A program made the position numbers. From the sequence record PZ674595.1: a DNA stretch of 64,000 nt. The stretch is one strand, 5' to 3'. Shown piece after piece: positions 26,301 through 29,300 of the stretch. Position 1 is the stretch's first letter; every line of letters begins with the position of its first letter. The DNA is from a phage.

Positions 26301-29300
26301 TTCCACCGTTAAACAAAGCTATTTCTGGTCGTTACGATGGCGGCTTCCCATGTGGTCGTATCGTCGAAGTATTCGGTCCTCCAAGTGCAGGGAAAACGTT
26401 CCTTGCAACAGCAGCGATGATCTCCGCTCAAAAACAAGATGGTCTGGCGGTATTCCTCGATCATGAAAACAGTTTTGACGTTGGCCTGGCTGTCGCCAAT
26501 GGCCTGAACGCAGATGAGGATGACGGTCAGTGGGTATACAAGCAGCCAGATACCTTCGAAGACTCTGTAGAGTTGATCGGCACAATACTTAAATTGGTTC
26601 GTGATGAAGAGCTTATCCCCGAATCAGCACCAATCTGTATCGTGGCTGACTCTCTTGCGTCTATGGTTCCGAACTCCAAAGCCGAGAAGTTCGAAAAGAT
26701 GGCTGAAGGCACTGCCAAAGACAAAGATCAGCTAAACATGAACGACAATACGGCACTGGCTCGTGCGACGAGTGCGAACTTCCCTACTCTGGCTTTGTGG
26801 GCACGCAAATACAACGCCTGCATCATCTTCTTGAATCAGGTTCGCACAAAAATCGGTGTAATGTTTGGCGACCCTACTACGTCGCCAGGTGGAGATTCAC
26901 CGAAGTTCTACGCTTCTGTACGTATCCGTCTTGGTGCATCGGTGATGAAGGATGGTAAAGAGAAGATCGGCCAGGACGTAGGCGCAGAATGCATCAAAAA
27001 CAAAGTTGCACCACCGTATGGCAAATGCACCTGGAAATTCTACTTCGATCCTACTCGTGGCCTCGACGTTATCGAATCGCTCGTCGAGTACATGCTGGAA
27101 GAAGGATACCTGCCAAAGAACGCCAGCGGGCGAGTTGAAATTGGTGACAAGAAATACACCAAATCGCAGATCGTCGAGATGTATCGGGAGAAGCCACTGG
27201 CTGAAATCATTGCGGCTTTGCAGGCAATCGACGACCGAAGAGCAAAAGACAACCCCACCGAGTCAGTAGAAGAGTAAACACAAGGCGTCCACAGGACGCC
27301 TTTTTTATCTCTTGAAAATATATAAGTACTTACTTATTATTTTCGCATAACAACCACATAGGAAAACACATGATCAAAATCTATCTATTGGCAGTAGCCA
27401 CAGGCCTTTCAGTGGCTCTCATCTACGGTTTACTGGTTCCGTCGCTGATTTCTACCAAGAGTGATTTAGCCGTCATGTTTGGAGTTATCGTTGGTTTTGG
27501 TGCTCCTGTAATCGGTCTTATTGCTGGTCGTAAGTTTATCAACTCATTAATCAAAGCAAAGGGGAAATAAGTAATGAAGAAAGGTTTACTTGCAGTTGCT
27601 CTGGCGGCTATTTGCACAATGGGTCTTACTGGCTGTGATCGCGTGGAGCCTGGATACGTTGGCATCAAAGTAAACAAATTAGGTGAAGACAAAGGGATTG
27701 GTGAAGTGGTTGGCGTTGGTCGCCAATGGACAGGTCTTAACACCGAACTTTACGTATTCCCGACCTTCAAACAAATGAAGACCTACGACGAGCCGTTCAC
27801 ATTCCAGATGAGTGACGGTACTGCTATTGGTCACAAAATTGGCGTTGCGTATCTGGTTAATCGTGACAAGGTAACGACGGTGTTCCAGACCTATCGCAAA
27901 GGCGTAGACGATATCACCGAATCAGATCTGCGTCAGAAAATTGCCGACTCTCTAAACCGTTTGGCCAGCCGTATGACCACTGACTCATTTATCGACGGTG
28001 GTAAGGCACAATTGCTGGACAACGCACTGAAAGATATTCAGAAAGAGATGTCTCCGGTTGGTATTGAGGTACTGAGCCTGTCATGGGTTGGAAAGCCTGA
28101 TTACCCAAAAACTGTCATTGAATCTATTAACGCCAAAGTAACGGCTAACCAGCGTACTCTGCAACGTCAGCAGGAAGTTGAACAACGTAAAGCTGAGGCG
28201 AATATGCTACGTGAACAGGCTAATGGTGAAGCTGATGCTATCCGTGCTCGTGCGCAAGCAGAAGCAGACGCCATTCGTCTGCGCGGTGAAGCTCTGCGTC
28301 AAAACCCGAACGTTATGGAACTGGAAGCCATCAATAAATGGAATGGCCAGTTACCGCAGTACATGACTCAAGGGGCTAACACTCCTTTCATTACAGTGAA
28401 ATAACTCCCCTAAAAAGTTCAGGCGTCCAGTTGGACGCCTTTTTTATCGCAATTATCTTATTAAGAAAACAATTTGTTTAAAAGGATAAGAAAACATGAC
28501 AGCTATTAAGAAACTCTACGATGCCGCAAACGTGGCTCTGGATGTTATTGATGATGAAGTAGCAAAAGGCTTTCCTGAACCTGATTGGGCGCATCAGCTA
28601 CGAAACGCTATCGCAGAAATGACCCCACCAGATCCAACCCCCGACGAGACAGACTGGCAGCGATTCATCCGTATGTACGCTCAGGAAATAGGTCCAACGC
28701 CAACGGCAGAGCAGGCAATGCTGCTGAAATACTTCAAAGAGGCGGGAGAGGATTTACCAATTGATGACTCAGCATATTGGTTCCACTGCGCATGGCGTAA
28801 GTATGACGTGATATTCACACAAGGCATGGGAAGCAAAGATATGGTTGTGTGGCATCTACTCCATATAGACACAGCCGTTGACAGAGTTATTGAACAGTTT
28901 TTCCCTAAACAAGAAGATTGATCGCCTATTCATAACTAACAAAATAAGTAAACACTAACCACAAAAGGAAAAACACATGAGAGTTTTAGTTCGAATCGTT
29001 ACCAGCACTGTCTATGACGTGTTTCCGCTTTTTATGGTCAAAGCCGATGGCCTTAACGACGAAGAAACTGACGCGCTGATCCAGCGTATTCTCGTTGAAT
29101 ATACAGGTCATGACGCTGATTCAGTGATGGTTGATGATGATGGTGTTTGTTGGCATAACGGCAACTGTTGGTACGTAGAAGAGACTCAACAAATCAGTGA
29201 TGAAGATGCCGAACATCTTGAGCGTATTTTAAGCATCAGCACTTTTGAGTGAGTTTACAGTAAAATTTATATAAGTTAGTATCTACCTATCATGAAGATT

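Follow-up and report, generated by a model that had tools for sequence, protein, structure and literature searches.

A widespread SPFH operon variant, found in a cassette of an SSU5-like phage-plasmid, couples a lipoprotein gene to a gene for a small predicted hairpin membrane protein

Few membrane scaffolds are as widespread as the SPFH proteins, which recent cryo-electron microscopy (cryo-EM) has shown to build cages. A 2009 survey of the prokaryotic members described both the NfeD partners of SPFH genes and the HflK/HflC pair, and, for SPFH4, which holds the prokaryotic prohibitins, noted the greatest diversity of any subfamily, a lack of investigation and a probable orientation towards the periplasm (Hinderhofer et al. 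2009, PMC2636767). Lipoprotein anchoring, phage carriage and a conserved small partner do not figure in that survey, in which the words 'lipoprotein' and 'phage' have 0 occurrences each. SPFH genes are also present in phages; a 2026 paper states that the reason for one in a phage genome 'remains unclear' (PMC13239085), and genome papers offer speculation on function only (PMC13239085, PMC10269572, PMC4936722). An SPFH lipoprotein from a prophage of Pasteurella multocida has been reported to be a TLR1/2 agonist (PMC9872710), and our search of open-access full-text papers and preprints turned up no study of what a phage SPFH lipoprotein does. Here we analyze a 64,000-nucleotide stretch of the phage sequence record PZ674595.1 (the window, hereafter), in which an SPFH lipoprotein gene is preceded by a gene for a 66-amino-acid membrane protein. 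We find that this pair is a new operon variant within the known SPFH superfamily and that it is widespread.

The second gene of the pair (27574..28404; this gene and the other features of the pair lie on the + strand) encodes a lipoprotein of 276 amino acids with an SPFH/Band-7 domain, similar in type to HflK/C and prohibitin, as judged from Pfam, PHROGs, NCBIfam and its predicted fold. A preliminary description of the window had proposed an SPFH-domain lipoprotein here, with a long charged coiled-coil tail, and both the profile search and the full-length fold comparison agree with it. Residues 23-209 (27640..28200) matched Pfam Band_7 (PF01145) with an E value of 2.6e-30 (106.2 bits versus a cut-off of 23.6), and the protein is a clear member of phrog_200, 'lipoprotein' (E 3e-108). 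The AlphaFold2 (AF2) model has a predicted local distance difference test score (pLDDT) of 79, and of 80-95 over the Band 7 domain; it consists of a beta-rich SPFH domain (23-176), one uninterrupted helix (179-243) and a C-terminus of low confidence. Together with the N-terminal anchor (1-21), this gives the layout of the superfamily: anchor, SPFH domain and C-terminal helical region. The single helix of 65 residues (28108..28302), rich in alanine and charged residues, corresponds in the model to the cage-wall helix of HflK/C, prohibitin and erlin, with full-length Foldseek matches to 7vhq, 8rrh and 9vvg. Among 14 diverse phage SPFH proteins ten residues are invariant, including G27, G30, G49, P63, G163, P178, W256, G258 and P261. 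The last three belong to a C-terminal motif, K-W-N/D-G-x-L-P ... P-F-x-x-V-K (28336..28401), which may be an oligomerization or cap segment.

When the whole model was searched against the PDB with Foldseek, the best fold match was HflK/HflC (7vhq, E 4.5e-14 and 6.8e-14); further matches were prohibitin (8rrh), erlin (9vvg), stomatin, flotillin and QmcA of the QmcA-YbbJ complex (8z5g). By sequence, HflK was the sole PDB match (E 0.007). HflC and HflK were also the top NCBIfam matches, at 30.2 bits versus a cut-off of 134.4 for TIGR01932 hflC and 18.7 bits versus 159.4 for TIGR01933 hflK, far under the level at which an equivalog is called. We conclude that the protein clearly belongs to the SPFH superfamily and is nearest to its HflK/C-prohibitin branch, without being an orthologue of HflK or HflC. 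Like these modulators of E. coli FtsH (7vhq, 7wi3, 9cz2), it has an SPFH domain, a wall helix and a C-terminal segment in the same order, and its predicted topology in the inner membrane, facing the periplasm, is the same. However, the locus holds one SPFH gene rather than two adjacent paralogues, the protein has a predicted lipid anchor (lipobox) in place of an N-terminal transmembrane helix, the hairpin partner is a separate 66-amino-acid protein that lacks an SPFH domain, and sequence identity to HflK/HflC is ~17%. Prokaryotic prohibitins (SPFH4) and the mitochondrial PHB1/2 (8rrh, 9o9z) are similar in fold and length, and the homologue in phage ProddE was annotated by its depositors as cd03401 SPFH_prohibitin. 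Homologues also appear in GenBank as 'SPFH domain-containing protein' or 'lipoprotein', and under the wrong names 'serine protease' and 'transposase'; the labels 'putative transposase', 'transposase fusion protein' or 'serine protease' occur in LN610578, MT119371, MH700630, LC567838 and MN163281. Because the Band_7 and fold results for the window protein support neither activity, these names look like propagated annotation errors.

The N-terminus of the SPFH protein, MKKGLLAVALAAICTMGLTG-CDR, reads as a classical lipoprotein signal peptide (27574..27636). In MKK-GLLAVALAAICTMG-LTGC, a basic n-region and a hydrophobic h-region are followed by a lipobox of the form [LVI][ASTVI][GAS]C, here L18-T19-G20-C21. 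The lipobox cysteine is kept in 12 of the 14 diverse phage homologues and in most of the loci from bacterial genomes, and the homologues that lack it (Bacillus phage Atlee and Phaeobacter phage MD18) have an N-terminal hydrophobic segment instead, as for a membrane anchor. In E. coli, an aspartate at position +2 of a lipoprotein is the signal for retention in the inner membrane during Lol sorting. Since Asp22 occupies this position, the window protein is probably retained in the inner membrane in E. coli; the aligned enterobacterial homologues also carry Cys-Asp-Arg.

The first gene of the pair (27370..27570) encodes the 66-amino-acid protein, assigned as a two-helix inner-membrane partner from its open reading frame (ORF), its membership of phrog_1130 ('membrane protein', E 2e-25) and its AF2 model. 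The two membrane helices anticipated in the preliminary description correspond to two hydrophobic segments, and AF2, run on a 13-sequence alignment, predicts a helical hairpin of helices 2-27 and 32-65 (mean pLDDT 85.7). According to the positive-inside rule, basic ends of a membrane protein face the cytoplasm. Both ends of the small protein, with MIK at the N-terminus and GRKFINSLIKAKGK as the C-terminal tail, are basic, unlike the short loop (STKS), so the rule predicts an N-in/C-in topology. At the predicted periplasmic end of helix 1 lies the conserved segment L23-P24-S25-L26-I27-S28, part of a near-invariant L-P-x-L-I-S-A-x-S-T(/D) that is the only strongly conserved feature of the small protein. 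A profile of the partner family, searched against 1.84 billion representatives, retrieved at least 814 clusters at 50% identity. Among the best 143 of these 814 clusters, 142 have two transmembrane segments and 140 contain P-x-[LM]-[IVF]-S; the consensus of the loop is [VIL]-[LA]-P-x-L-[IVF]-S-[AS]-x-[SD]-[TD].

A second known arrangement with which the pair must be compared is the SPFH-NfeD operon (QmcA-YbbJ, 8z5g; PH1511-PH1510; YuaG-YuaF), which likewise consists of two genes, for an SPFH protein and for a small membrane protein with transmembrane helices. The SPFH protein of those operons forms cages, as we infer for the lipoprotein here. The differences are that the partner gene lies upstream, that the partner lacks an NfeD or OB-fold domain, and that the SPFH domain is predicted to be periplasmic, whereas QmcA has been described as facing the cytoplasm (PMC2636767). 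Neither the 66-amino-acid protein (E up to 0.1) nor 13 diverse members of its family (E up to 1) matched NfeD (PF01957), and the profile of the partner family matched no PDB chain at E up to 10, the NfeD protein YbbJ of 8z5g included. We therefore rejected NfeD as the identity of the small protein, which at 66 amino acids is too short for the domain. In fact, no Pfam family was found for it at E up to 0.1, and sources label it 'hypothetical'. On their sequences, the small proteins form an unnamed new family dedicated to the SPFH lipoprotein. Although phrog_1130 and phrog_200 clearly include the two proteins, they are sequence clusters with no demonstrated function, and their annotation does not record the link between them. 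A description of the conserved hairpin partner was not found in open-access full-text papers and preprints, which is not proof that none exists.

By tblastn, the SPFH lipoprotein gene was present in 413 phage records, from virulent and temperate phages alike; a profile search with the 14 diverse phage SPFH proteins returned nearly the same close relatives as the search with a single sequence. Temperate carriers include phiP27, Stx2a phages, the P2-like P88 and Burkholderia prophages, and strictly virulent carriers include Schitoviridae, Vequintavirinae, Ounavirinae, Bruynoghevirus, Autographiviridae, phiCbK-like phages, Herelleviridae, Crassvirales and Lak megaphages. The SPFH gene in diverse phages is immediately preceded, and mostly overlapped, by an ORF of 58-78 amino acids with two transmembrane segments and the same loop between the helices. 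Examples of the loop are LLPRMISSDSS in P88, LVPFLISMKDT in phiP27, VLPAMISAKDT in the N4-like KpCHEMY26, FVPALISSDQW in Vibrio phage CKB-S1, IAPWLISKPDS in the T7-like ProddE, VTPWLVNQDSS in Burkholderia phages, WAPGLISAPDD in Phaeobacter phage MD18, VLPYLFSARSY in Stenotrophomonas phage Paxi and GVPTLVSAKDT in the rV5-like 4MG, where the partner ORF is one gene further upstream. The partner ORF of phiP27 (62 amino acids, MRLYFTIVILLAIIACIYGLLVPFLISMKDT...; NC_003356, our locus L088 2316-2504) overlaps the start of the SPFH gene L05 and is unannotated in the record. Two loci of the phiP27 type, from Shigella flexneri (L113) and E. coli (L114), have unrelated sequence at the partner position and no partner.

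The pairing extends to bacterial genomes. A scan of one genome per species, made with a profile from a 7-sequence subset because the 14-sequence alignment was too divergent, found 68 loci, and the partner was present in ~47 of the ~50 with at least 36% identity, including those of Saprospirales, Flavobacterium, Bacteroidales and Dependentiae. The reverse search, starting from the small protein, gave the same association: a Band_7 gene overlaps its 3' end in 9 of the 9 places listed, which come from Burkholderia, Salmonella and E. coli assemblies and from metagenome contigs. Furthermore, a 94-kb NCBI contig encodes a 347-amino-acid in-frame fusion (P0021; 8 member sequences) of a partner of the 78-amino-acid type with an SPFH lipoprotein, the lipobox being intact. 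A natural fusion of this kind indicates that the topologies of the two proteins are compatible; P0021 could be genuine, or it could be an artefact of a frameshift or of sequencing. Purifying selection acts on the two genes of the pair, with ratios of nonsynonymous to synonymous substitution rates (dN/dS, or omega) of 0.11-0.23 (small gene) and 0.03 (SPFH gene). Thus, given also their conservation in hundreds of elements, they are not chance ORFs. Diversifying selection on the small protein was considered and rejected from its omega of 0.11-0.23.

The genomic context of the pair differs among its carriers. In virulent phages the SPFH gene is found among replication or nucleotide-metabolism genes: it adjoins the genes for an RNA polymerase subunit and dUTPase in KpCHEMY26, lies between the genes for DNA polymerase and exonuclease in ProddE and for DNA polymerase and ligase in phiEa104, and precedes the DNA polymerase gene in CKB-S1 and Atlee and ThyX in Paxi. 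In the temperate P88, phiP27, Stx2a phages and Burkholderia prophages, the pair occupies accessory regions. In Dyella and other Rhodanobacteraceae (L126-L153), it lies on the chromosome in conserved synteny, outside prophages, with a BlaI/MecI-type repressor gene on one side and nrdB on the other; the flanking ORFs are common to 10-12 of the 14 other loci compared and are not phage genes. The pair thus also exists as a resident cellular locus, which favors a basic function at the membrane over one confined to conflict between phages. The genome of Dyella marensis UNC178MFTsu3.1 holds the pair twice, on different contigs (L144 and L153), and the context of L153 differs from that of the syntenic locus. 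In Salmonella and E. coli elements of ~55-92 kb (L101, L103, L104 and L105; ~6730-8198), Tad2-like (anti-Thoeris) and P1 Lpa-like genes follow within 2 kb of the SPFH pair.

These contexts bear on a possible role in the timing of lysis, in which the part of a class II holin or pinholin-like protein would fall to the 66-amino-acid hairpin, with the SPFH lipoprotein as its antiholin or corral. The size of the small protein, its two transmembrane helices and its basic C-terminal tail do resemble those of class II holins, and single members of its family match holin Pfam families weakly and below threshold (E ~0.1). However, the window protein has no significant holin match in Pfam or PHROGs, the neighbors of the pair in the window are recA-like and DUF7238 genes, and in none of the loci examined does the pair adjoin an endolysin or spanin gene; it sits instead among early or middle replication genes, and it is conserved in Dyella chromosomes outside prophages. 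We regard a lysis function as very improbable.

In the window the two genes are arranged as the operon that the preliminary description had read there, between the strong terminators that it had also noted. The small gene has a Shine-Dalgarno sequence, AGGA, at 27360..27363, and its stop codon, TAA (27568-27570), is separated by three bases from the ATG of the SPFH gene at 27574, in the same frame. The Shine-Dalgarno sequence of the SPFH gene, AGGGG (27560..27564), is contained in the small gene, at its 3' end, a position that suggests coupled translation of the two genes; in homologous cassettes, the two ORFs overlap. The upstream terminator, which follows the recA-like gene, is AAGGCGTCC-ACA-GGACGCCTT plus a T-run (27282..27309; hairpin 27282-27302, -14.7 kcal/mol, z -6.1), and the downstream copy is AGGCGTCC-AGTT-GGACGCCT plus a T-run (28421..28448; hairpin 28421-28440, -15.1 kcal/mol, z -4.5). 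Both hairpins are GC-rich, nearly identical and followed by TTTTTT, and 0 of 200 shuffled sequences folded as well as either. The hairpin GGCGTCC-N3/4-GGACGCC occurs at 2 sites in the window (expected, 0.00), and these are the two ends of the pair. The recA terminator is kept in relatives. In a pMT1-type contig of Y. pestis NCTC5923 (L112 2195-2305), its stem is GGCGCCC...GGGCGCC versus GGCGTCC...GGACGCC in the window, two changes that compensate each other and keep the hairpin intact.

Between the first terminator and the small gene, a consensus scan (10/12) predicted a sigma-70-like promoter (27312..27340), with TTGAAA at 27312-27317, a spacer of 17 nt and TATTAT at 27335-27340. The region, TTGAAAAT-TATAAGTACTTACTTATYAT, is nearly invariant in the Cyrano, Kluyvera and pMT1 relatives, and its spacer holds AAGTACTTACTT, one copy of a motif that is repeated in the intergenic regions of the element. 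Taken on either strand, the 21-nt form of this motif, AAGTNAGTANNTACNTATNAT, has 14 matches in the window versus 0.5 expected. The sites, at 2379-2399, 5732-5757, 16385-16405, 23795-23820, 27315-27340, 29273-29293, 33068-33088, 47304-47324, 48344-48364, 49526-49546 and 54500-54520, are all intergenic and upstream of + strand non-structural genes, namely those for a single-stranded DNA-binding protein (SSB), SbcD, a methyltransferase, a CobT-like protein and several proteins with no assigned function. The motif may be a promoter or regulator box specific to the element, and its presence in the promoter suggests that the cassette is co-regulated with the DNA-metabolism genes of the element. Two other interpretations of the spacer were considered. 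A palindromic operator, AAGTAAGTA-N3-TACTTACTT, was rejected, as it gave 5 matches versus 3.4 expected in a shuffle test, unlike the directional 21-nt version, which is significant. P1-type Lpa-dependent late promoters are unsupported as the meaning of the motif: the window, which covers 64 kb of an element of roughly 110 kb, holds no Lpa homologue, and the downstream genes are non-structural.

Comparison with relatives delimits an accessory cassette of 1139 bp (27310..28448), comprising the promoter, the two genes and the second terminator copy. In E. coli D9 plasmid A (NZ_CP010153), the recA stop codon is followed by a single hairpin, GGACGCCTTTTTTATC and then directly GCAATTATCTTATTAAG. This junction, with its one terminator, joins window position 27309 to 28449, so 27310-28448 is a precise indel among SSU5-like phage-plasmids. 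The 16-nt GGACGCCTTTTTTATC is present in the window as a repeat, at 27294-27309 and at 28433-28448. Enterobacter and Klebsiella SSU5-like plasmids also lack the cassette and pass straight from the recA terminator to the downstream genes. The locus is thus a self-contained accessory cassette of moron-type architecture. As in the morons defined for lambdoid phages, it has its own terminator and promoter-like element (a consensus match only, conserved in relatives), and it lies between two conserved genes and is precisely absent from close, collinear relatives. It differs from them in having the base composition of its surroundings, since we saw no foreign composition (45.4% GC in the cassette versus 45.6% in the window and flanks), and in a promoter region that holds the motif common to the DNA-metabolism genes of the element. 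The cassette may thus be co-regulated with these genes rather than expressed independently from the prophage. Compared with Cyrano (L001) and L047, the SPFH gene is nearly identical (synonymous divergence, dS, of 0-0.005), whereas the small gene has a dS of 0.63 and 73% amino-acid identity to that of Cyrano, which places a recombination breakpoint at or near the gene boundary. Among 5426 complete E. coli genomes, 283 (~5%) carry the cassette or a relative, in 198 plasmid and 101 chromosomal places.

The preliminary description had assigned the window to a phage-type element, and it can be classed more closely as an SSU5-like phage-plasmid. The region of the cassette is 99% identical to Escherichia phage CMS-2020a and 94-96% identical to phages PhiR41_1 and Cyrano (all three ~108 kb) and to many E. 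coli plasmids of ~110 kb that are typed as non-mobilizable. The small gene is found in Salmonella phage SSU5 at 59% identity, and the locus is also carried by Y. pestis pMT1-type and Salmonella (pHCM2-type) plasmids of ~106 kb. The genes near the locus, which encode a UvsY-like protein, a gp32-like SSB, a 5'-3' exonuclease, RecA, RepA and SbcD, are consistent with this class. The pair is flanked upstream by the recA-like gene (26204..27277; Pfam RecA, E 2.2e-42) and downstream by a DUF7238 gene (28496..28921). In the window the recA-like product has 357 amino acids and no intein. Versions of ~780 amino acids, annotated as intein-containing or as LAGLIDADG homing endonuclease, are present in Cyrano (L001 3739-6078), E. 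coli D9 plasmid A (L106 39-2378) and an Enterobacter plasmid (L107 39-2381); there is thus a polymorphism for the presence of an intein in the gene directly upstream of the cassette. Beyond DUF7238, in the region 29292-29803, are two further small envelope-type ORFs. The first encodes a 59-amino-acid hydrophobic protein (phrog_2535), into whose ATG one copy of the 21-nt motif extends, and the second a 111-amino-acid protein (phrog_2077) with an N-terminus that resembles a signal peptide. Cyrano retains these two ORFs, as do the plasmids without the SPFH cassette.

Presence of the cassette on Y. pestis pMT1 and S. enterica pHCM2-type plasmids, taken with the report that a prophage SPFH/HflK-C-like lipoprotein, PM0222 of Pasteurella multocida, is a virulence factor acting via TLR1/2 (PMC9872710), might point to a surface factor of lysogenic conversion directed at the animal host, either by stimulating TLR2 or by conferring serum resistance. 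Yet stimulation of TLR2 is generic to bacterial lipoproteins, the Asp at +2 predicts an inner-membrane rather than a surface location, and the family is found widely, in virulent phages as well as in environmental bacteria and phages without an animal host (Dyella, Caulobacter, Desulfovibrio, Phaeobacter). We consider such a role highly unlikely.

The moron-type architecture of the cassette and its presence/absence polymorphism are also what would be expected of a superinfection exclusion system, one of the two functions raised as possible in the preliminary description, the other being remodeling of the host membrane. The inner-membrane pair would block entry of the genome of a competing phage, functionally like T4 Imm/Sp or P22 SieA, with a periplasmic SPFH layer and the hairpin obstructing the channel or the host factor used by the incoming DNA. 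Consistent with this are the accessory-region position of the pair in P88, phiP27, Stx2a phages and Burkholderia prophages, its proximity to a Tad2-like anti-defense gene in related ~90-kb elements, its predicted location at the periplasm and inner membrane, where DNA enters, and the PHROGs category of the small protein ('moron, auxiliary metabolic gene and host takeover'). Virulent phages, too, are known to have early exclusion genes. Against it, neither protein matches any PADLOC-DB model (E up to 0.1), the PHROG matches include no annotated exclusion protein, and selection on both genes is purifying rather than diversifying (omega of 0.03 for the SPFH gene). The promoter motif shared with replication genes suggests lytic or replicative rather than constitutive expression in the lysogen. 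Moreover, strictly virulent phages keep the pair in their replication and nucleotide-metabolism modules, it is retained by phages whose hosts and entry mechanisms are unrelated (Bacteroidota phages and a Bacillus phage among them), and many Dyella species have it as a syntenic chromosomal locus outside prophages. On balance we think exclusion unlikely to be its function. The Dyella synteny, the replication-gene context in virulent phages and the motif shared with the SSB, SbcD and methyltransferase genes instead support a cellular role rather than a conflict-specific one.

The reading that we favor is that the pair forms a periplasm-facing inner-membrane SPFH scaffold that manages membrane proteins during phage replication. 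The 276-amino-acid protein would be exported, lipid-modified at Cys21 and probably kept in the inner membrane, with its SPFH domain on the periplasmic side, a topology known from HflK/C and mitochondrial prohibitins. To our knowledge, every structurally solved full-length SPFH protein oligomerizes into a ring or cage, and the 65-residue helix and the conserved C-terminus would most likely drive the formation of one here. Coupled translation from the same transcript would supply the 66-amino-acid protein, whose hairpin loop is predicted to lie at the periplasmic surface of the membrane, where the base of the SPFH domain and the lipid anchor would sit. It could serve as the transmembrane subunit, providing the membrane fence that HflK/C forms with its own N-terminal helices. 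Such a complex may wall off patches of the inner membrane from the periplasmic side and so control the organization or turnover of membrane proteins, and its benefit would be a membrane kept functional while the element replicates. The analysis establishes that the genes are real, what domain and lipobox they encode, the hairpin partner, the obligate linkage of the two genes across phyla, the mobility of the cassette and the purifying selection; localization, physical interaction, cage formation, client and benefit to the phage are inferred. Its structural part taken by itself seems to us likely to be right, the physiological role is put forward tentatively, and for the reading as a whole we judge the chances to be about even.

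By analogy with HflK/C and prohibitin, host FtsH would be a candidate client of the scaffold. A more specific proposal is that the pair is a dedicated FtsH modulator, in which a phage SPFH cage replaces or competes with HflK/C and so alters the degradation of a phage regulator (as for lambda CII/CIII), of LpxC or of sigma-32. The predicted topology is that of HflK/C, and these closest relatives, like prohibitin, partner FtsH-type AAA proteases from the non-cytoplasmic side (PMC2636767); the role has in fact been proposed in genome papers (PMC10269572, PMC4936722). However, the HflC and HflK equivalog scores are far under their cut-offs (30 vs 134 and 19 vs 159 bits), there is a single SPFH gene rather than an HflK/HflC pair, and strictly virulent phages, for which there is no choice between lysis and lysogeny, commonly carry the module. 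We therefore hold a dedicated FtsH modulator to be quite unlikely. The regulation of membrane proteases that the preliminary description mentioned is likewise drawn from the analogy with HflK/C and prohibitin only.

Several observations weigh against the scaffold as we have drawn it. At +2, homologues in other hosts have Ser, Glu or Asn, and part of the family may therefore be sent to the outer membrane. AF2 confidence is low over the last 29 residues of the SPFH protein. The partner is lacking in the bacterial branch with less than 36% identity, and in the LUZ24-like TL, phiEa104, phiCbK, phiM6 and Bacillus phage Atlee the small ORF before the SPFH gene is a different one; the existence of phages with the SPFH lipoprotein and no hairpin indicates that the partner is not universally required. 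We saw no feature that links the system to FtsH specifically, and the open-access literature on family members offers annotation-level speculation and no experimental function.

In a bolder form, the pair would add a third, unrecognized type to the SPFH-NfeD and HflK-HflC operons of prokaryotes, captured repeatedly by most tailed-phage lineages as a shield on the periplasmic side of the inner membrane. By enclosing patches of membrane in cages, it would guard the infected or lysogenized cell against DNA injection by competing phages or against membrane-depolarizing abortive-infection effectors. This is a speculation that we doubt; if it were true, the pair would be a broad, host-independent device for exclusion and counter-defense. 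What the analysis defines is a compact two-gene version of the SPFH system, a lipid-anchored SPFH protein with a hairpin partner of 60-80 amino acids that bears a signature loop. Its retention by many unrelated phages means that it probably confers a general advantage during infection. A module this small is simple to express or delete and is well suited to cryo-EM, and would offer a route to the role of a periplasm-facing SPFH cage and to the reason why phages carry one.

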